Assembly (NCBI GenBank): GCA_029555085.1
Contig: JAKPTO010000028.1
Location: forward strand, 1-17,146
DNA from: a bacterium
Lineage (GTDB): Bacteria > Patescibacteriota > Patescibacteriia > UBA1558 > S5-K13
DNA: 17,146 nt
Reading direction: 5' to 3'
Shown here: positions 5,285 through 16,982 of the stretch, piece by piece
How the letters are laid out: every line of letters starts with the position of its first letter
How positions within the stretch are numbered: position 1 is the stretch's first letter
Program-made: the position numbers and the translations under genes
Notes under the pieces: model-generated
What the model was told of the DNA's origin: nothing
Databases searched by the model: none
What the model saw: only the letters and a program-made list of their open reading frames with translations

Positions 5285-7123
5285 ATGGAAGAAAATGTTA
5301 AAAATTTAAAAAGAATATTTCTAAAATCAACAATTATTTTTTTTATAATTGTTTTTTTTATAATTATTTTGTTTCTTGTGTATAATGCTGTTTTTGCGCA
5401 AAGAGTTTATTTAGGTGTTTATGTTAGTAATAAGCATGTTGGGGGCATGACATATTCAGAGCTTTATAATTATATTTCCGACAAAATAAAACAATTTGAT
5501 TTAAATGGGATTAATTACAAATACGATAATTTTGTTTACAATATAAAACCAAACAGTGAGGAGATTGGTGACAGCGGATATAGATTGATATATTTTGAGC
5601 CAGATAAAACTTCAAAATTGGCTTATAGTTTTGGAAGAGAATCAAATTCTTTCAAAAATTTTTTAAATAAATTTTTGATCCTAATTTATCCAAAAAAAAT
5701 TCAACTTAACTATGATTTTAATAAAGAAAAATGGCAAGAAATTTTACGAGAGAAATTTAAGCAATTTGAAACAGATTTTGTATATCCAAAAGTTGGTTTT
5801 AGTGGTGATGATATTGTAATTTCAAAACCACAAGACGGAAAATTTTTTGACTATGAAAAAATAATTAGAATCACAGATAAAAAAATTAGTAATTTAGATA
5901 CTAGTGATGTTAATTTAGAGATTGAAATTAGTAAATGCCCAGTTTCAATAGATGAAGCAAACGCACAAAAAGAGCTAATAAATCAAATAATAAATTTAGG
6001 AGAAATTTCTTTAAAATTTGAAGATAAATCATGGAACATTAAATCAGATATTTATAAAAATTGGTTATTGGTAAAACAAGAAGATAAAAAAATTGTTATA
6101 GGGTTTGATTTTGATGATTATAAAAAATATTTAGAGGAAAACATTTCTAGGGAAATTAATATAGAAGTTCAGGATGCAAAATTTTCTATGAAGGGCGGAA
6201 AGGTGAATGAATTTATTGGAAGTCGAGATGGGCGAGAAGTTGATGTAGAAAAGACATTAGAAAATCTTGAAAGCAATATAAATGATTTAGTAAAAGAAAC
6301 ATTAGTTGTTGTTAATGTAACAAAGTCCGATATTTCTACAAACGATATAAATGATTTAGGAATAAAAGAAATTATTGGAACCGGTGAATCAGATTTTAAA
6401 GGAAGTTCAAAAAATAGAGTTCATAATATAAAAGTTGGCGCAGATAAATTAAATGGAATTTTAATTAAACCAGGAGAAGAATTTTATACAATAAAAAATT
6501 TATTACCAATTGATAAAGAAGGGGGATATTTATCAGAATTTGTTATAAAAGGAAACAGAACCGTTCTTGAATATGGCGGTGGGCTTTGTCAGATTGGAAC
6601 GACAATGTTTAGGGCAGCAATTCAATCAGGACTTAAAATTACCCAAAGAAGGCCACATTCTTATAGAGTTGTGTATTATGAGCCAGCTGGAATGGATGCA
6701 ACAATTTATGACCCAATGCCAGATTTAAGGTTTATAAATGATACTGATAATTATATTTTGATTCAAAGTAGAATAGAGGGAACAAAACTTTATTTTGATT
6801 TCTGGGGAACAAATGATGGAAGAGTTATAAATATTTCTAAGCCAGTTATTTATAATATAGTAAAACCCGGTCCAACAAAAATGATTGAAACTACGGATTT
6901 AAAACCCGGTGAAAAAAAATGTATAGAGTCAGCACATAATGGAGCTGATACATATTTTGATTATAGTGTTTTATACAAAGATGGAACAAAACACGAAGAA
7001 AGGTTTTCGTCTCATTATGTTCCATGGCGAGCGGTTTGTTTAATTGGCGCAACTGTTTCTAGTTCTAGCGCTACTGGAGAGATTGAAAATATAACAAGTT
7101 CTACAAGTTCAACAAGTGAATAA
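5285..7123 (+). CDS. VanW family protein with N-terminal TM anchor, probable PG_binding_4 regions and a G5-like tail
   Basis: N-terminal hydrophobic helix and GVYVSNKHVGGMT. VanW core: NRVHNI...LNGILIKPGEEF...YGGGLCQIGTTMFRAA...RRPHS...GMDATIY..DLRFINDT. Confidence 0.92.
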   Translation: MEENVKNLKRIFLKSTIIFFIIVFFIIILFLVYNAVFAQRVYLGVYVSNKHVGGMTYSELYNYISDKIKQFDLNGINYKYDNFVYNIKPNSEEIGDSGYRLIYFEPDKTSKLAYSFGRESNSFKNFLNKFLILIYPKKIQLNYDFNKEKWQEILREKFKQFETDFVYPKVGFSGDDIVISKPQDGKFFDYEKIIRITDKKISNLDTSDVNLEIEISKCPVSIDEANAQKELINQIINLGEISLKFEDKSWNIKSDIYKNWLLVKQEDKKIVIGFDFDDYKKYLEENISREINIEVQDAKFSMKGGKVNEFIGSRDGREVDVEKTLENLESNINDLVKETLVVVNVTKSDISTNDINDLGIKEIIGTGESDFKGSSKNRVHNIKVGADKLNGILIKPGEEFYTIKNLLPIDKEGGYLSEFVIKGNRTVLEYGGGLCQIGTTMFRAAIQSGLKITQRRPHSYRVVYYEPAGMDATIYDPMPDLRFINDTDNYILIQSRIEGTKLYFDFWGTNDGRVINISKPVIYNIVKPGPTKMIETTDLKPGEKKCIESAHNGADTYFDYSVLYKDGTKHEERFSSHYVPWRAVCLIGATVSSSSATGEIENITSSTSSTSE

Positions 7124-7128
7124 ATATT

Positions 7129-7617
7129 TTAAAGTATTTTGAGTCCAATATTTTTTGTTTCTGTATCTAAAATTGCAAAAGTGCTTTTGTTAAACATCCC
7201 AGCTAGAGTTCCGGGATTTATTAGTTTTGTATTATTTATGTTTTCTTCCCATGGTTCATGCGTATGTCCATAAAAAACAATATCAAATATATTTTTTTGT
7301 GCTAATTCTTTTGCTAAATTTGGGAAATGGCAGAATCCTATATTAAAATTATTTATTTTTAATTCCCCGATTTTTTCAAAAACAAAAACATTGTCAAAAT
7401 TGATATGTTTTTTTTCAAGTCCATGCATTTCATCAACATTTCCCAAGGATAGATAAATTTTTCCGTTAAAGTTTTTTGATAAGTGTTTTAATGTTTCAAG
7501 ATTTGTTACATCTCCGCAGTGAATTATTGTATTAATATTTTTTTCATTTAAAAAAGACAACATTTGGTCAATGCGTATAATGTTGTCATGTGTATCAGAA
7601 ATAATACCTATATACAT
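7129..7617 (-). CDS. YfcE/MJ0936-family metallophosphoesterase
   Basis: Calcineurin-like motifs ISDTHDN, HCGD, GNVD, GHTH and NPG. Confidence 0.93.
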   Translation of the reverse strand: MYIGIISDTHDNIIRIDQMLSFLNEKNINTIIHCGDVTNLETLKHLSKNFNGKIYLSLGNVDEMHGLEKKHINFDNVFVFEKIGELKINNFNIGFCHFPNLAKELAQKNIFDIVFYGHTHEPWEENINNTKLINPGTLAGMFNKSTFAILDTETKNIGLKIL

Positions 7618-9125: not shown

Positions 9126-9200
9126 GCCGTTATCGTCTAGTGGTTAGGACACCAGGTTTTCATCCTGGTAACCGGGGTTCGATTCCCCGTAACGGTACCA
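9126..9200 (+). tRNA. tRNA-Glu (anticodon TTC)
   Basis: Acceptor GCCGTTA/TAACGGT, D arm GTC-TAGTGGTTAG-GAC, anticodon arm CCAGG-TTTTCAT-CCTGG, T arm CGGGG-TTCGATT-CCCCG and an encoded ACCA end; 75 nt. Confidence 0.97.
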
Positions 9201-12004: not shown

Positions 12005-12015
12005 AAAGTTTTGTG

Positions 12016-13488
12016 ATGGAAAAGTTTCATCCGAAATTTCATTGGCAGTTAGAAAAAAAAACAGAGAGCAGGAAAAAACTACTCATAATCTTTCTTGTTC
12101 TTTGTTTTATTTTTGGAATATTTTTTATAATAAAAAAAACTTTTTTTGTTCCAGAAAAAAATATAGCGCTAGAATTTTTATCTCCCAATAGTTCAAAAAT
12201 TATTTTTAGTACAAATAAGGCCGATTCGTTATTTAAAAAGTTGGGTCAGAATAAAATAGTTTCATATATTGAAAAATATACAGATGGAAGTAATTTTAGG
12301 GCTGGTAATATTTTATCTAAGTTAAGTAGAGAACTTGTTTGGGCGGAAAATGATAACAATTCACAGATTCTTTTGATAAAAACAAAAAGTTCAACATTTT
12401 TGCAGAGCGATATTTTAGGTTCTAGAAAAATAAAGGAAGAGAACTATAATGGAAAAAAACTTTATTCGTCAGATTTTTATTTTGAAAGCGAGAATTTATT
12501 CACAAAAAAAGATAAAATTTATTTTGCAAGATTGAATGAATATATATTTTGCATCTCAAATGATAAAGATTTTTTATATGAAACTATTGATAAGTATAAT
12601 TATTTTGAAAAAAATAAATTTAAAAACATAACAACAATAAGACATTTTGGAGATAAATCGGTTTTAAATATAAGTATATCAGATTATGATCTTTCCAAGA
12701 GTAATAGTTTTGTAAAAAATTTATCATTTTTAAATAATGTTTTATCTAGCAATACTGGAAATGTGGAAATAGATTTTTCTTTAAATTATGCGGATCTATT
12801 TATATCTTCAAATAAAAATTTTGATAAGAATAAAATTTCTGAAACAATGAAATATTATTTTATACCAGATTTAAATAATAATTATTTTTATTATAAAAAT
12901 TTTTCAAACACAATTAATTATTCAGAAAAAAATTTATTAAATTATGTTTCTGATTTTATAAATACAAATGTTGGGATAAAAGACGAAATTATTAATACAC
13001 AAAATTTGGGATTAATGATTTATAAAAATGGAAATTTCTTGATCGAAAGCGAGGACTATGAAAGCATCTCAAATGTTTTTAAAAAATTATTGTCAGTTTA
13101 TTTTCCAGGAACAAGAAGAATGAGTTTGCCAGATGGCACTGTTTCAGTAGAGTATTTTGCAGATCCAGGAAATGTAGAATTAAAGGAATTAACTGATAAA
13201 GATTTTGTTTGGTATTATGCTGATACGCCAGAAAAATCAAATTATGAGATGTTAAAATGTAATGATTTATTTTTTGTGTCCAGCGATAAACAAAAAATTA
13301 TAAATTATTGTACGAATAGAGATAAATTATCAATGTTTTTTACTCGCAAACAAGAAAATATAAAAGAAGTAATGTATATAGATGTTTCAAATAAATCAAA
13401 TTTTCCAATTTTGGGCTCAGTGAAAAATATTTTTGCTATAAATTTTGATGACGAGAATCGGGTTTTATTTTTCAGATTTTTTTATTGA
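12016..13488 (+). CDS. Hypothetical membrane-anchored protein
   Basis: About 490 aa with one N-terminal TM (LLIIFLVLCFIFGIFFII) after a basic patch. It starts 11 nt after pnp (GTG 12013 is an alternative start). No function recognised. Confidence 0.75.
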   Translation: MEKFHPKFHWQLEKKTESRKKLLIIFLVLCFIFGIFFIIKKTFFVPEKNIALEFLSPNSSKIIFSTNKADSLFKKLGQNKIVSYIEKYTDGSNFRAGNILSKLSRELVWAENDNNSQILLIKTKSSTFLQSDILGSRKIKEENYNGKKLYSSDFYFESENLFTKKDKIYFARLNEYIFCISNDKDFLYETIDKYNYFEKNKFKNITTIRHFGDKSVLNISISDYDLSKSNSFVKNLSFLNNVLSSNTGNVEIDFSLNYADLFISSNKNFDKNKISETMKYYFIPDLNNNYFYYKNFSNTINYSEKNLLNYVSDFINTNVGIKDEIINTQNLGLMIYKNGNFLIESEDYESISNVFKKLLSVYFPGTRRMSLPDGTVSVEYFADPGNVELKELTDKDFVWYYADTPEKSNYEMLKCNDLFFVSSDKQKIINYCTNRDKLSMFFTRKQENIKEVMYIDVSNKSNFPILGSVKNIFAINFDDENRVLFFRFFY

Positions 13489-13500
13489 TAATCTTTGAGC

Positions 13501-13529
13501 TTGATTTTTATTTTTAAATATGATATAAT
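13501..13529 (+). promoter_or_regulatory. Near-consensus sigma70 promoter with no credible downstream CDS
   Basis: TTGATT (13501-13506), 17-bp spacer, TATAAT (13524-13529) with extended -10 TG (13521-13522). Confidence 0.65.
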
Positions 13530-13535
13530 ATTATT

Positions 13536-13926
13536 ATAGATGAGAAAATATGCTGATTTACACCTATTTTCCCTACAATTTAAAAAATTTTGGTGATATA
13601 GTAGCCAAAAACAAAAATAAAAAATCATTCCTTTAAAAAGAGGTTTGATAAAAAATAAAAACAAAAGTTATCTCCCATAAAAAGAGAGAGATGACAAATA
13701 AAAATAGAGTAGGGTAAAGCAGTATATGAGAATTTGTGAGAAATGCTCTCGCAGGTTTCAAAATAACGATTTTATCAAATTATTTATGGTAATTTGATGG
13801 CCGTTTGAAGCTTGGGGAGTGGAACCTCCCTACGGCGAAAACAAAATATAAAATGGCCGTTTTAAGGGAGGTTTTCCCTTTTATAAAGCCAATTTACATA
13901 TATAAAAAGATCATCGCGGTCTTTTT
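13536..13926 (+). ncRNA. Candidate ~390-nt structured ncRNA of unknown family
   Basis: Flanked by a promoter and a terminator. A ~21-bp helix (13548-13570/13706-13727) encloses three hairpins and four more follow. It has many G-U pairs on the + strand and A-rich linkers. Confidence 0.6.
13904..13926 (+). terminator. Terminator-like hairpin closing the candidate ncRNA
   Basis: AAAAAGATC-ATCGC-GGTCTTTTT; the T-G pair works only on the + strand. Confidence 0.55.
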
Positions 13927-13936
13927 AATTTTGAAT

Positions 13937-13962
13937 AAAAAAGGAAGAGCCGAAGCTCTTCC
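13937..13962 (-). terminator. Intrinsic terminator of the 79-aa ORF
   Basis: On the minus strand GGAAGAGC-TTCG-GCTCTTCC-TTTTTT, 4 nt after the stop. Confidence 0.9.
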
Positions 13963-13966
13963 AATG

Positions 13967-14206
13967 TTATATTTTGAAACATTTTTTGATAATTTCGTCG
14001 ATTTGTTGTTTATCGACGATCTGTTCTTCTTCTGTGATTTTCGGTTTCCCGTTAATCATTTCAACTGTATAGAGAGTTATCTCTGAAAAGTTGAAGTTTG
14101 CCACGGGGATAATACACATGTCTTCATTTGTCTTTGTTGGATTTCCCACAAAGTCGTTGTGAGTAACCGCTCTTGAAATAAGTTCGGTGGCTTTTTGGTG
14201 TAGCAT
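13967..14206 (-). CDS. Small hypothetical protein (79 aa)
   Basis: ATG start, strong SD AGGGAGG (14217-14211) and its own UUCG-loop terminator. Confidence 0.75.
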   Translation of the reverse strand: MLHQKATELISRAVTHNDFVGNPTKTNEDMCIIPVANFNFSEITLYTVEMINGKPKITEEEQIVDKQQIDEIIKKCFKI

Positions 14207-14257
14207 TTTTCCTCCCTATTTTTTGTTATCGTGCTTTGAAGTATGTTATATTGATTA

Positions 14258-15013
14258 TTAAAATAAGTCAATGCCTATTGGCGCATGATCAGAGCCCATT
14301 ACTTTATCTAATATATATGCATTTTTAATATTTTTTATAAATTTTTTTGATACACAGAAATAATCAATGCGCCATCCGACATTTCTTACCCTTGCTCCAG
14401 CTCTGAAACTCCACCAAGAATATTGAATTTTTTTAGGATTTAAATATCTGAAAGTATCAATAAATCCGTTTTTTAAGAATTTAGTCATCCAATTTCTTTC
14501 TTCATGTGTAAAACCAGAAAGGCCCTCATTTTCTTTTGGGCGAGCAATATCAATTTCTTGATGCGCTACATTATAATCTCCACAAACAACTACTGATTTT
14601 TTCTTGTCTAGGGTTTTTATATGAGATAATAATTTATCATTGAATTTTATTTTATAATCGAGTCGTGATAGGTCATCTTTTGAATTTGGAAAATATACAT
14701 TTACTAAAAAAAATTTTTTCATTTCTAATATTTGTACTCGTCCTTCATCATGAGTATAAATTTTTTTTGAAACAACTTGATCTTCTAAGGAATTTTTTAT
14801 AAGCATCATTGTCCCGCTGTATCCGGGACGCTTTGCGCTATTCCAAAATTCATCATAGTCAAGGAAATCGAACTCTTCTTTATTTCGTGCATTGTCATCA
14901 ATTTTTATTTCTTGTAAACACAAAATATCAGGATTTTCTTTTTTTAGAAACTCTAAAAATCCTTTTTTAATTACAGCTCTAATTCCGTTTATGTTCCAAG
15001 AAATTATTTTCAT
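14258..15013 (-). CDS. xth: Exodeoxyribonuclease III / AP endonuclease (ExoA/Xth family)
   Basis: SWNINGIRA, LQEIK, GYSG, YFPN, GDYNVAH, YSWWSFR, GWRIDYF and SDHAP. Confidence 0.97.
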   Translation of the reverse strand: MKIISWNINGIRAVIKKGFLEFLKKENPDILCLQEIKIDDNARNKEEFDFLDYDEFWNSAKRPGYSGTMMLIKNSLEDQVVSKKIYTHDEGRVQILEMKKFFLVNVYFPNSKDDLSRLDYKIKFNDKLLSHIKTLDKKKSVVVCGDYNVAHQEIDIARPKENEGLSGFTHEERNWMTKFLKNGFIDTFRYLNPKKIQYSWWSFRAGARVRNVGWRIDYFCVSKKFIKNIKNAYILDKVMGSDHAPIGIDLF

Positions 15014-15281: not shown

Positions 15282-16982
15282 TTAAAAAATTATAAGAAGA
15301 ATTAGTAAGATGATAAGAAGTATTGAGGAAATAATAATATCAGCATGTTGTTTTTTAATTTTTACAAATATATTTATCAAAAGAATTGTTATTGCTAGTA
15401 TGAGGAGTATTTTATAATAAATTGAGCTTATGCTAAATAAAGAGTTTAGTAGAGAATTGCTTTTGTGTTTTTTTGCAAAATTATATTGATTTATTGGAGA
15501 TGGTTTTGTAAGTATAATATCATCCCAATCTATGTCAGTTATTAATTCATTTCCAAAATCATCTGTTGCTTTCAATGAAACAGGAACAACAGGTTGAAAA
15601 AACGATTCTTGGTCTGTTAATAAATGTCCACTCCATTTGTTTGGAATATTTTCGTCTTTTACGAGTTGTATTTCTGTTCCTTCTATATATATACTTGCAT
15701 TTTTGGTGTCATCCGTTAAATATATTTCTGCAGATATAACATAATTATTTAAAGAATCTTTAGTTATAAAAATTTTAGTTTTTTCTGTGTCTGTGATTTG
15801 TGGAGCTGTTGTGTCTAAAATTATATTTTCAGTGCTCGTTGTTTGTGTGTCTGTTTGTGTTTCTGTTGTTTGAGTTTGTTTTTCAGCGAGAACATTTTTG
15901 TTGTTATCATTTTGAGTTGTTTGCAAGTTAGTATTATTGTTTTCTTGTTTTTCTGTTGTTGTAGAGCTTTGGTTTTCTGTCGATGTTACAGTATTTGATA
16001 AAACTAATTCTTTTTTGGATCCTGTTGTAGATGTTGAGGTTTCTGTTGTTTCAATTGTTTCTAACGGAGTTTCTACTGTTTCTTCTGGCGTTTGAGTTTG
16101 AATTGTTTTGGCAACATTTTCTGTTCCAAAATATTGAGCAGCAAATGTTGCGTCGTATTCTTTGTATTTTCCAGCTGAAATTCCAACGCCTATGTCTTGA
16201 AAATCAGGATCAATCATATTTTTATAGTGTGTGGGGCTGTTTTTCCACGCGTTCACTATTTCTTCGGCTGTTTGGAATCCTATTGCCAAATTTTCTCCAC
16301 CAAATTTGAAATTATAATTTGCTAACTTTAACCAATCAGCGACTCTTTTTCCATCTGGTCCCATGTGCGCAAAATATTGATTTATCATCATGTCTTCAAC
16401 TTTCCACATTGCAGCTTGAGTGAGTTTTGTGTTTTCTGTTAATTCCTGAATATTTAAATCTTTTCTTATTTTATTTGTGAGAGAAATTACTTTTCGACTT
16501 TCAGCAGAATAATAATCCGGACTCAATAGCGCTGTTAAAGGAGTGAGCGATGTTGCGAGAATTGTTATTAATTTTATAACGATTATGCTTACCGCATAGA
16601 ATAATAATCTCTTTGGTTGAAGAGCTTTTGGTCTGTAATTGTTGTTTTCATTAGGAACAACATAATCCCAAAAAGAAAGAGGATCTAACCCTAGTTGAAT
16701 TTCATCTCCATCTGATAATCCATCTCCGTCTGTGTCTGGATTATTTGGATCTGTTTTGTATTTATTAACCTCATCTCCATCTGATAATCCATCTCCGTCT
16801 GTGTCTGGATTATTTGGATCTGTTTTGTATTTATTAACTTCGTCTTCATCTGATAATCCATCTTCGTCTGTGTCTAGATTATTTGGGTCTGTTTTGCGTT
16901 TTTTAATTTCGTCCTCATCTGACAATCTTTTTTTATCAGAATTGAGTTGTTTACTTGCTTTTTTCATATATTTTTTATACAC
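15282..16982 (-). CDS. Membrane CAP/SCP-domain protein with N-terminal TSP3-like DxDxDG repeats and a Thr-rich linker
   Basis: KTDPNNPDTDGDGLSDGDE repeats and a TM, then CAP motifs LTNKIR...KLTQAA..K..DM....YFAH..PDG...GENLA.G......VNAWKNSPTHYKNM.DP.F.DIGVG. Two C-terminal TMs. The exact start is uncertain (GTG 16982 or the ATG five codons later). Confidence 0.88.
   Translation of the reverse strand: MYKKYMKKASKQLNSDKKRLSDEDEIKKRKTDPNNLDTDEDGLSDEDEVNKYKTDPNNPDTDGDGLSDGDEVNKYKTDPNNPDTDGDGLSDGDEIQLGLDPLSFWDYVVPNENNNYRPKALQPKRLLFYAVSIIVIKLITILATSLTPLTALLSPDYYSAESRKVISLTNKIRKDLNIQELTENTKLTQAAMWKVEDMMINQYFAHMGPDGKRVADWLKLANYNFKFGGENLAIGFQTAEEIVNAWKNSPTHYKNMIDPDFQDIGVGISAGKYKEYDATFAAQYFGTENVAKTIQTQTPEETVETPLETIETTETSTSTTGSKKELVLSNTVTSTENQSSTTTEKQENNNTNLQTTQNDNNKNVLAEKQTQTTETQTDTQTTSTENIILDTTAPQITDTEKTKIFITKDSLNNYVISAEIYLTDDTKNASIYIEGTEIQLVKDENIPNKWSGHLLTDQESFFQPVVPVSLKATDDFGNELITDIDWDDIILTKPSPINQYNFAKKHKSNSLLNSLFSISSIYYKILLILAITILLINIFVKIKKQHADIIISSILLIILLILLIIF
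16702..16929. repeat. 69-bp coding tandem repeat, about 3.3 copies
   Basis: Units start at 16702, 16771, 16840 and a partial at 16909. The first two are nearly identical and encode the 23-aa DEVNKYKTDPNNPDTDGDGLSDG. Confidence 0.9.

Follow-up and report, generated by a model that had tools for sequence, protein, structure and literature searches.

Behind pnp and a membrane-protein gene in a bacterium of the Patescibacteriota, a phylum of ultra-small (CPR) bacteria, lies an interval that offers no convincing protein gene, which raises the question of whether it holds an RNA gene of its own and, if so, what that RNA might do. We addressed this question in a 17,146-nt stretch of DNA (contig JAKPTO010000028.1, analysed over its full length and referred to here as the window), for which a preliminary description had proposed an undescribed, independently transcribed + strand RNA. 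Our best explanation, to which we assign a probability of about 0.6, is that positions 13536 to approximately 13882, with read-through to 13926, form an independent gene for an abundant, structured noncoding RNA of an uncatalogued family, with protein binding as its inferred mode of action. That this is a real, independent noncoding RNA gene is by itself close to certain, and here fold statistics, absence from Rfam, covariation and RNA-only cover in 4 runs all uphold the original proposal.

A structured RNA transcribed from its own promoter

The near-consensus promoter reported to point into the gap is present as described (Table 1), and its position places the inferred transcription start at about 13536. 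It is kept in 4 genus genomes, in which the flanks diverge and the RNA region is more conserved than the flanks, and a promoter of the type TTGAC-N17-TGnTATA(A/C)T was found in 14/14 homologues examined. The gap was also rightly called devoid of a credible coding sequence: 13501-13926 contains no conserved ORF, indels among genus relatives are not multiples of three, and a 17-codon AUG frame at 13540 is absent from these relatives.

Folding of 13536-13926 gave a minimum free energy (MFE) of -105.6 kcal/mol on the + strand vs. a shuffle mean of -68.1 (z = -7.12, with 0/100 shuffles as good), compared with z = -3.29 on the minus strand, an asymmetry consistent with the earlier argument from G-U wobbles that selection acts on a + strand RNA. 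Metatranscriptome contigs, which carry no strand, exact-end or level information and none of which spans 13860-13882, cover 13544-13814, 13554-13854, 13552-13816 and 13612-13859 in 4 runs of 4 studies (depths 6-76), with zero cover of 12800-13531 on the upstream gene side in all four. Positions 13860-13867 were uncovered in all four runs, 13868-14018 was covered by one low-depth contig (X15, depth 3), a pattern with no bearing on the 3' end, and 6 RNA runs contain 58-66% of the words. In RNA libraries, representation of the RNA far exceeds that of the genes on either side. The discrete + strand transcript that had been anticipated is matched by RNA-only cover of 13544-13859 in 4 runs.

We give hardly any credence to the opposite reading, i.e., that the interval holds no functional RNA and consists of either chance hairpins in an AT-rich spacer or a small protein gene. 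AT-rich genomes do yield promoter-like and hairpin-like matches (8 promoter-like sites were counted vs. 4.7 expected), and the RNA region is overlapped by two ORFs (60 and 93 codons). However, the folding z-score, the compensatory changes described below, the conservation above the flanks and the RNA-only cover all argue against this reading, and neither these two ORFs nor the 17-codon frame is conserved.

Table 1 Position and basis of the features at the RNA locus, in window coordinates
Feature	Position	Strand	Basis or remark
DUF3352-like 491-aa protein with N-terminal membrane anchor (context)	12013..13488	+	directly after pnp
Promoter: -35 TTGATT, 17-nt spacer, extended -10 TGaTATAAT	13501..13529	+	hexamer matches 10/12 plus TG
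Closing helix P1, 5' strand	13548..13570	+	MFE, 4-genome RNAalifold
Hairpin H1 (UUUUGGU ... GCCAAAA)	13588..13610	+	MFE, RNAalifold
A/C-only single-stranded linker 1, ACAAAAAUAAAAA	13611..13623	+	unpaired in MFE and RNAalifold
Hairpin H2	13624..13649	+	RNAalifold; 2 pairs change on both sides
A/C-rich linker 2	13650..13666	+	MFE, RNAalifold
Hairpin H3, UCCY/GAGA module with C.A mismatch	13667..13695	+	MFE, RNAalifold
Closing helix P1, 3' strand	13706..13727	+	MFE, RNAalifold
Small hairpin GUGAGA-AAUGC-UCUCGC	13736..13752	+	G:C to A:U compensatory change within genus
Helix P2 (AGGUUUCAAA with UUUGAAGCUU) around hairpin P3 (13774-13798)	13753..13813	+	covariance
Long terminator-like hairpin, then U tract UUUUCCCUUUU	13821..13882	+	covariation, MFE
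Second hairpin, flanked by runs of A and of U; back-up or bidirectional terminator	13904..13926	+	MFE

A branched 5' domain with single-stranded A/C linkers

The closing helix, the three hairpins H1 to H3 and the A/C linkers between them had all been drawn from the letters of the window, and this arrangement was reproduced by MFE folding and by RNAalifold on 4 genomes. Within the genus, 21 pairs of P1 form in 100% of cases; one shows a C:G to U:A double change, and there are 6 single changes that wobble pairing accommodates. H2 differs in sequence among genus members with its pairing retained; at 4 sequences, covariation of the 5' domain within the genus is statistically weak (28/500 shuffles reach it). 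For 12 sequences of other families, taken by fold-based extraction and aligned by plain MAFFT, 11/13 pairs of the equivalent P1 covary, and 95.9% pairing vs. 71.5% in shuffled alignments was matched by 0/500 shuffles.

Relatives also have a hairpin at the H1 position. An A/C run of 11 nt or more occurs in 13/14 family RNAs and recurs in many syntenic RNAs of other families, this tract being the best conserved primary sequence across families. The exact UCCY...GAGA string of H3 is present in 11/14 family RNAs, and the C.A plus U.G module was recognised by eye in relatives from other families; a descriptor scan for the UCCY/GAGA hairpin was over-strict and uninformative, missing even the copies in the RNA itself (1 match vs. 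3 in the reversed genome).

Conservation of the A/C tract is the point in favour of a trans-acting base-pairing regulator that would use conserved single strands or loops as seeds. The partners of such a tract would, however, be U/G-rich runs, and because these abound in a 29% GC genome the tract has little specificity. Searches of the family genomes turned up no Hfq, and the size and rigid multi-helix layout of the RNA are unlike those of typical seed-type sRNAs, leaving this reading a very slim prospect.

A covarying 3' domain and its terminators

Across the 3' domain, 96.8% of cells are paired vs. 81.2% in shuffled alignments and 22/40 pairs change on both sides, a covariation reached by 0/500 shuffles (slid controls, 35-59%), in an alignment (A6) that was made with the covariance model (CM) and is biased towards its own structure. 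The small hairpin downstream of P1, originally placed at 13730-13758, is supported by compensatory changes and has counterparts in the paralogue (GGGAA/UUCCC) and in the genome G013 (GAGAGCAU/AUGCUCUC). Its GCUCUC segment (13745-13750) can instead pair with GGGAGU (13815-13820), which is the pairing chosen by RNAalifold and the CM. The hairpin expected at 13772-13800 was confirmed at about 13774-13798 as P3, and 9/11 pairs of P2 and P3 change on both sides.

Farther downstream our scheme departs from the preliminary one, in which two local hairpins occupied 13800-13836 and 13854-13891. These are alternatives costing +3 to +15 kcal/mol in 14/14 homologues, where the MFE fold is a single long hairpin in which GGAACCUCCC (13821-13830) pairs with GGGAGGUUUU (13866-13875) and ACGGC (13832-13836) pairs with GCCGU (13856-13860), with an A-rich loop between. 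Its helices have 9/16 pairs that change on both sides and 95-100% of cells paired, and other-family relatives terminate in an equivalent GC hairpin with A/U loop and U tract. Because this covarying hairpin replaces part of the earlier 3' pairing scheme, the main 3' end may lie near 13882 instead of 13926, giving an RNA of about 347 nt. The terminator originally proposed at 13904-13926 is retained in part: it forms in the MFE structure and its stem varies compensatorily among four genus members, but a simple terminator scan did not pick it up, and the main end is likely the one upstream. The RNA gene has both its own near-consensus sigma-70 promoter and a covarying, GC-rich terminator hairpin.

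The competing pairings in this domain also bear on whether the RNA could be a conditional-termination device (attenuator or riboswitch-like), in which an anti-terminator would compete with the terminator and so control how far transcription runs on into the 3' tail or the genes downstream. Its segments GAGAG, CUCUC, GGGAG, CUCCC and GGGAG are arranged such that each neighbouring pair can pair, the alternative fold is only 3-5.5 kcal/mol dearer in 7/14 homologues, and in other families a DksA/TraR-lspA gene pair follows on the same strand as the RNA. In the other 7/14 homologues, however, the alternative costs 9.5-15 kcal/mol (overall range +3.0 to +15.1, with the terminator fold as MFE in 14/14), and no conserved ligand pocket is visible because the stretch separating the switching segments differs both in sequence and in the number of hairpins. 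Nothing lies on the + strand after the RNA in the window, where the next genes are convergent, and the next gene in several other families has a consensus-like promoter of its own after the terminator. We consider such a switch very improbable.

Comparison with known RNA families

A search with Rfam 15 (4227 models, including OLE, raiA, ROOL, GOLLD, HEARO, Y RNA and T-box) returned tRNAs only, both in the window and on 9 homologue loci and 20 syntenic loci. The RNA family is uncatalogued and absent from Rfam 15, which supports the earlier view of an undescribed RNA. The covariance models likewise agree with the earlier statement that no tmRNA, RNase P, SRP or T-box RNA is seen here: RNase P RNA and tmRNA have genome copies elsewhere (G000:C48, 191.9 bits, and G000:C5, 91.1 bits), and for SRP RNA neither RF00169 nor RF01854 matched in the window's own genome, also at E up to 10. 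As a separate observation, no trace of an SRP system was found in the lineage carrying the RNA, with RF00169 matching 0/61 relatives, PF02978 of Ffh giving 0 matches and PF00448 just 22.9 bits (in the ORF right after secY), and no SRP-GTPase motifs found in the six-frame translation.

The 6S model (RF00013) had no match in the same genome and none at E up to 10 on 13400-14000. Several features would nevertheless suit a functional analogue or very divergent form of 6S RNA, which would bind the RNA polymerase holoenzyme and adjust transcription to growth state: the genome has no other 6S candidate, and the RNA is a stand-alone one, abundant in libraries, with a strong, near-consensus sigma-70 promoter and two paralogues, as for 6S-1 and 6S-2, the two 6S paralogues of Bacillus. 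In 3/3 other-family loci tested, moreover, the next gene encodes a zinc-finger protein of the DksA/TraR family, whose members bind RNA polymerase. Yet 6S RNA is a single rod closed by its 5' and 3' ends around a large central bubble, whereas the window RNA has a multi-branched 5' domain followed by a 3' rod and terminator hairpin, lacks both central bubble and 5'-3' closing stem and, at 350-390 nt, is about twice the usual 6S length. We regard a 6S role as improbable.

CsrB/RsmZ and CrcZ resemble the window RNA in being multi-hairpin RNAs with repeated units. CrcZ has A-rich Hfq/Crc sites, and repeated single-stranded A-rich (AAN-like) motifs as in a CrcZ/Hfq-type decoy are found here too, unpaired in the folds; weak CrcZ alignments fall on these tracts, at 8-18 bits in the window vs. 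a 95-bit cut-off. Unlike CsrB/RsmZ, the RNA has no conserved GGA loops, GGA occurring in one loop only (UGGAAC, 13820-13825) that reads UGAAAC in other genera, and unlike either class most relatives outside the family have single units. Genes for Hfq and CsrA were found in 0/14 and 1/14 family genomes, respectively, the window's own genome having no CsrA. OLE, raiA, ROOL, GOLLD and HEARO, whose functions are partly unknown, are similarly several hundred nt long, ornate, covarying, lineage-restricted and prominent in RNA libraries, but none matched, and the host (Patescibacteria), motif set and neighbourhood differ.

Distribution within the family and beyond

A plain DNA search of 61 relatives gave full-length matches in 3 same-genus genomes only, together with one 67-nt piece in G007, the remaining matches being A-rich low-complexity sequence. 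Model R1 found matches in 12/86 order genomes, all in the window's family (f1), and model R2 in 13/14 family genomes, with at least 2 matches in 11 of these, so that the homologues earlier anticipated among Patescibacteria are in evidence. Most family genomes carry a second, shorter paralogue; in the window's own genome (G000:C43) it adjoins a T2SSE ATPase gene, away from the pnp locus.

Applied to 151 class genomes, R2 gave only weak matches (21-31 bits) outside the family, and those whose alignments were inspected were ordinary terminators. A pattern scan identified 6 loci in genome contigs (4 from genomes already in the comparison), 22 in metagenome contigs, of which 6 score with R2 and the other 16 are unrelated repeats or coding DNA, and 0 in viral contigs; MAFFT alignment of a 75-nt core suffered a register shift and gave no usable consensus. 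A third model, R3, built from other families only and containing no f1 sequence, matched 20/36 sampled pnp-downstream loci, 12 of these 20 being its own training rows, and gave no match on the other 16/36 sampled loci outside the family. Counted apart from the training rows, R3 matched 9 further loci, one of them an f1 paralogue (L062, 36.8 bits, E = 8e-5). On the window RNA itself R3 reached 12.9 bits with filters off (E = 1.2, below significance), so that for the window copy the case for homology to the wider RNA is made by synteny and layout.

A conserved neighbourhood and a probable relative in other families

The remark that a position downstream of rpsO-pnp might be meaningful gains weight from the order pnp, membrane protein, RNA, which is held across the window's family and in many other families. 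The DUF3352-like gene adjoins the RNA in 9 family genomes and lies within about 2 kb in 2 more, pnp is directly upstream of it in 6/6 tested, and a distant homologue of the protein occurs in G022. The wider order is pnp, DUF3352-like membrane protein, RNA and then usually a DksA/TraR gene and lspA; the small ORFs that come next in other families, at first assigned to rplM and rpsI, in fact encode products of DksA/TraR type and LspA.

The RNAs in these places share a layout that begins with a leader hairpin and a long P1 around H1, an A/C-only single strand of 13-35 nt and a hairpin with a conserved C.A/U.G pair step. The 3' domain that comes next is rod-like and variable, and the terminator hairpin completes the series. 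The hairpin-plus-linker unit is present in 1-3 copies in the window's family, and most other relatives have one copy per element. It is likely that the window RNA is homologous to this wider syntenic RNA of the same class and, judging from synteny, promoter and box layout and element order, it is probably a local, elaborated version of an RNA present in many families of that class.

The box in question is a perfect DnaA-box 9-mer, TGTGGATAA, located about 100 nt before the -35 element in 17/22 loci outside f1 and 17/22 f1 loci. It is missing in the window's genus copy and kept in its paralogue; a DnaA-box search in the window gave 7 matches with at most 1 mismatch vs. 5.8 expected, none near the RNA. 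Through this DnaA-box-like element, synthesis of the RNA would probably be tied to growth or replication state.

The same neighbourhood could point to a role in RNA decay, with the RNA as a decoy for, or partner of, the decay enzymes and PNPase in particular, whose KH/S1 domains the single-stranded A-rich tracts might engage. In every family genome whose contigs permit the check, the RNA gene comes after pnp with one gene between, the same order recurs in many other families, and the long A/C-only single strands are conserved. A precedent for such an association is Y RNA, which is part of an Rsr-PNPase complex and is likewise structured, but here the PNPase link is suggested by gene order alone, no Y RNA or YrlA match appeared in the Rfam scans and no tRNA-like module was seen. 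Gene order is, moreover, weak evidence for an RNA that has its own promoter, is separated from pnp by a membrane-protein gene and has a paralogue elsewhere, beside the T2SSE ATPase gene. A PNPase role is in our assessment decidedly improbable.

A possible protein-binding function

Our preferred account of function, which we hold tentatively and at somewhat less than even odds, is that the RNA acts as a protein-binding scaffold or decoy within a small RNP. Its candidate recognition sites would be the single-stranded A/C tract, which is invariant, and the C.A/U.G hairpin; the hairpin-plus-linker unit would have been duplicated in the window's family. A defined RNP scaffold fits better than a multi-site sponge, as had also been suggested, because the repeats are confined to the family and most relatives are single-copy. 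Against protein binding, the conserved upstream neighbour resembles an envelope protein, not an RNA binder, and genes for the two decoy-associated proteins considered above were found in 0/14 (Hfq) and 1/14 (CsrA) family genomes.

A bolder version, which we think unlikely, makes the RNA a subunit of a class-wide CPR RNP, switched by DnaA, that couples replication or growth to RNA turnover or transcription. DnaA would here act via the box, set precisely at about 135 nt ahead of the transcription start. A hint of the coupling to RNA turnover or transcription is the constant position of the RNA, with pnp on one side and a DksA-like gene on the other.

Implications for Patescibacteria

The accessible portions of the literature on Patescibacteria mention no catalogued or studied noncoding RNA beyond the universal ones. 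Because it is abundant, covarying and spread over many families of one class, with a conserved promoter, upstream box and neighbourhood, an RNA of about 350-400 nt offers a handle on regulation in a group whose biology has been deduced mainly from protein genes. With the alignment as its basis, a model of this new RNA family would sharpen the annotation of thousands of MAGs. The RNA also lends itself to pull-down, structure probing and cryo-EM, and the link to the DnaA box is a testable hypothesis. A homologue in a phylum member that can be both cultivated and genetically manipulated, should there be one, would allow direct tests of function.

A structured RNA gene downstream of pnp

The gap between the upstream 491-codon ORF and the convergent ORF that follows holds no conserved ORF, and carries a near-consensus promoter. 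Folding the + strand from 13536 to 13926 gave a minimum free energy of -105.6 kcal/mol against a shuffle mean of -68.1 (z = -7.12, with 0 of 100 shuffles as stable), while the minus strand reached z = -3.29. Both this fold and a four-genome consensus recovered the closing helix of the 5' domain proposed in the preliminary description, together with its three enclosed hairpins, its linkers made only of A and C, and the final hairpin of the RNA; a further hairpin at 13774-13798 was recovered in the same way. We read a long hairpin as a terminator because a U tract follows it. The local hairpins previously drawn in this region are possible alternative folds, but in each of the 14 homologues they come at a cost of 3.0-15.1 kcal/mol. 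Five successive segments here (GAGAG, CUCUC, GGGAG, CUCCC and GGGAG) can each pair with their neighbours, a pattern that would allow a possible switch.

Positions of the RNA, its elements and associated features (window coordinates unless a contig of the same genome, C43 or C47, or a cut-out locus, L075, is named)
Feature	Position	Strand	Remark
tRNA	9126-9197
491-aa DUF3352-like protein gene	12013-13488	+
Promoter	13501-13529	+	TTGATT-17-TGaTATAAT; 10/12 hexamer matches plus TG
Closing helix	13548-13570 / 13706-13727	+
Hairpin	13774-13798	+
Long terminator hairpin	13821-13875	+
Final hairpin	13904-13926	+
Convergent ORF (79 codons)	13967-14206
566-aa protein gene	15282-16982	-
Type B paralogue, shorter	C43 ~7055-7440 (L075 ~1350-1735)	+	second locus of model R2
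Type B 3' domain	C43:7205-7382		32.6 bits
9-mer cluster 1	C43:6901-6974		four in 75 nt
9-mer cluster 2	C47:41412-41514		three

The stretch was found in fourteen DNA runs and six metatranscriptome runs. We compared window positions 12800-14600 with the RNA contigs of four runs, each from a different study, and found contigs of 99-100% identity covering 13544-13814, 13554-13854, 13552-13816 and 13612-13859, the last with adapters on its flanks and a depth of 76. The upstream gene (12800-13531) had zero RNA-contig cover in all four runs, and the only other RNA contigs in the compared region were one of depth 3 at 13868-14018 and a mismatched one of depth 2.6 in xth. Contigs carry no strand, exact ends or level; the contrast in cover with the flanks speaks against DNA carry-over and for an RNA far more abundant than its neighbours. 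The depth-3 contig (X15) reaches from the 3' hairpin of the RNA across the two terminators into the 3' part of the convergent ORF, and may represent read-through from either side.

Further downstream, the 566-aa protein carries bacterial TSP3 repeats and a CAP (cysteine-rich secretory) domain; it also weakly matches a Ca-binding domain that takes its name from binary toxins, and is probably a secreted or surface protein.

Conservation and covariation within the family

BLAST returned full-length copies at 84-89% identity in three genomes of the same genus, and in the genus alignment the promoter and RNA are conserved between divergent flanks, with 13795-13895 invariant. Of 86 genomes of the order, a covariance model of the 3' domain (R1) matched 12, every one from the window's family (11 of 13 plus the window's own genome; 0 of 72 elsewhere). 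A refined model (R2) matched 13 of 14 family genomes, the missed one being 79% complete, and gave two or more matches in eleven of them. The second locus is a shorter paralogue (type B), present in the window's own genome on contig C43, which agrees with the window RNA in promoter type and also has an A/C tract, a UCCU/GGAGA hairpin and a terminator hairpin. In 4 of the 5 genomes examined, the type B RNA and a T2SSE (PilB-like) ATPase gene are transcribed divergently; tRNA genes lie close by.

All 14 family RNAs cut out have the promoter TTGAC-N17-TGnTATA(A/C)T, and 13 contain a stretch of 11 nt or more made up of A and C only. The motif UCCY...GAGA occurs in 11 of the 14, the remaining three having GAGG; read from the sequences, it folds as a hairpin with a C.A mismatch beside a U.G or C:G pair.

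Covariation was measured on 13 distinct 3' domains in an alignment made by, and so biased towards, the covariance model. Paired cells amounted to 96.8% vs. 81.2% in shuffles, 22 of 40 pairs were altered on both sides, and the covariation score was 0.458 vs. 0.200 (0 of 500 shuffles as high), with pairing falling to 35-59% for slid partners. The clearest cases are the long terminator hairpin (CCUCCC/GGGAGG to CUCCCC/GGGGAG or GCUCCCC/GGGGAGC) and its inner stem (ACGGC/GCCGU to GGCUC/GAGCU or GGGUC/GACCU). Within the genus (n = 4), the 5' domain was 99.4% paired with 3 double changes, a weak result reached by 28 of 500 shuffles. Between the first and second terminators of three relatives' loci (L055, L056 and L057, from genomes G005, G007 and G012), short units such as UUUAGNG, UUAGC and UACGGG are repeated in tandem 4-7 times with a period of 7, with nothing clear in the window copy.

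A wider RNA recognized by synteny

For the upstream 491-aa protein Pfam gave no match; it carries a membrane anchor at its N-terminus and is DUF3352-like by language-model features. Used as a query, it was found in 12 of 13 family genomes and 0 of 72 elsewhere. Its gene directly precedes the type A RNA in 9 genomes and lies within ~2 kb in 2, with contig ends in 2 others; pnp is immediately 5' of it in 6 of 6 family genomes from other genera. The protein changes quickly, with 26-31% identity from genus to genus in a single family, and throughout the order its gene stays between pnp and the RNA.

From each of 16 genomes in the order's six other families we took the 4.5 kb that follow pnp. In thirteen of them, a 440-530-codon ORF stands before a gap of 270-800 nt that is free of ORFs and carries a consensus-like promoter; in one sampled genome (G022) the ORF is distantly homologous to the window protein, at 23% identity over 403 aa. 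These gaps share an order of elements: leader hairpin, long closing helix (P1), GC hairpin, A/C tract, a hairpin with a C.A/U.G step, more helices and a GC terminator hairpin whose loop is A/U. This layout recurs in part of 20 further families of the class. In a plain MAFFT alignment of 12 of these 5' domains, 11 of 13 P1 pairs were altered on both sides, with pairing of 95.9% vs. 71.5% and a score of 0.627 vs. 0.181 (0 of 500 shuffles as high; slid controls 41-57%).

A covariance model built from these 12 domains, with no sequence from the window's family (R3), matched 21 places in 59 loci: its own twelve rows, eight new loci outside the family, and one type B RNA inside it (L062, 36.8 bits, E = 8e-5). 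Outside the family this amounts to 20 of 36 sampled loci, own rows included. Against the window with filters off, R3 gave only 12.9 bits (E = 1.2), at the correct place and strand, so what links the window copy to the wider RNA is synteny, the layout of promoter and box, and the order of elements, not a significant score.

DnaA-box-like 9-mers upstream of the promoter

A 9-mer that perfectly fits the DnaA-box consensus, mostly TGTGGATAA, lies 100-102 nt before the -35 element in 12 loci outside the family. Of 22 such loci, 17 have it somewhere in the 260 nt upstream, and it is usually the sole such 9-mer in the 4.5-kb locus. Inside the family, one to four boxes lie 110-208 nt ahead of the start in 17 of 22 RNA loci, with none before any of the four type A (post-pnp) copies in the window's genus. 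The window's genome has 73 such 9-mers, and they form clusters of at least three at just two sites: ahead of the type B RNA, and ahead of mraZ-rsmH, between it and a pseudouridine synthase gene. Since the second of these clusters adjoins mraZ-rsmH, what reads the boxes could be MraZ or another factor rather than DnaA. In L058-L060 (from genomes G013, G010 and G008), the stretch from the upstream gene to the RNA promoter contains a perfect inverted repeat, AACTTATCCAC-N6-GTGGATAAGTT, with the 9-mer as one of its arms; a terminator hairpin and a palindromic operator are equally possible readings of this repeat.

Relation to known RNAs and possible function

At gathering thresholds, Rfam 15 matched only a tRNA in the whole window. 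Relaxing to E up to 10 added only sub-threshold noise in the RNA region (best 21 bits vs. a 66-bit cut-off), including weak CrcZ rows that align to its A-rich tracts, and 0 of 20 syntenic loci outside the family matched any Rfam family. The window's genome (1.02 Mb, 53 contigs, 99.4% complete, 29% GC) has its RNase P RNA and tmRNA elsewhere, and the 6S and SRP RNA models found no match in it. The fold of the window RNA is unlike that of 6S RNA, and our literature search on candidate phyla radiation bacteria found no mention of 6S RNA.

We rejected identity with SRP RNA on the missing model match, and also because neither Ffh nor FtsY turned up in the genome: PF02978 had 0 matches, PF00448 reached only 22.9 bits in an ORF after secY, and SRP-GTPase signature motifs were not found. 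SecY was detected at 343.8 bits, so the protein search works. PF00448 had no real match in 41 genomes of the order and none at E <= 1e-10 in 101 of the class, and RF00169 (SRP RNA) matched 0 of 61 relatives. These searches found no trace of an SRP system in this genome, which does have SecY, or in the relatives covered; our literature search found no published account of such a loss. The same search (Patescibacteria, candidate phyla radiation, Komeilibacteria) found no such structured RNA, and passages from a 2024 review (PMC11665869) mention no non-coding RNA.

An Hfq gene was found in 0 of 14 family genomes and a CsrA gene in 1 of 14, so the known sponge systems do not apply. Nothing regulated was found downstream of the RNA in the window. 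We infer that the best fit is a protein-binding scaffold or decoy, a role to which the conserved, obligatorily single-stranded A/C tract, the hairpin with a conserved non-canonical step and the high abundance would point. In 3 of 3 loci tested outside the family, the genes after the RNA encode a DksA/TraR zinc-finger protein and signal peptidase II; with pnp before the RNA and a DksA-like gene after it, this neighbourhood suggests RNA decay or RNA polymerase as its field of action.
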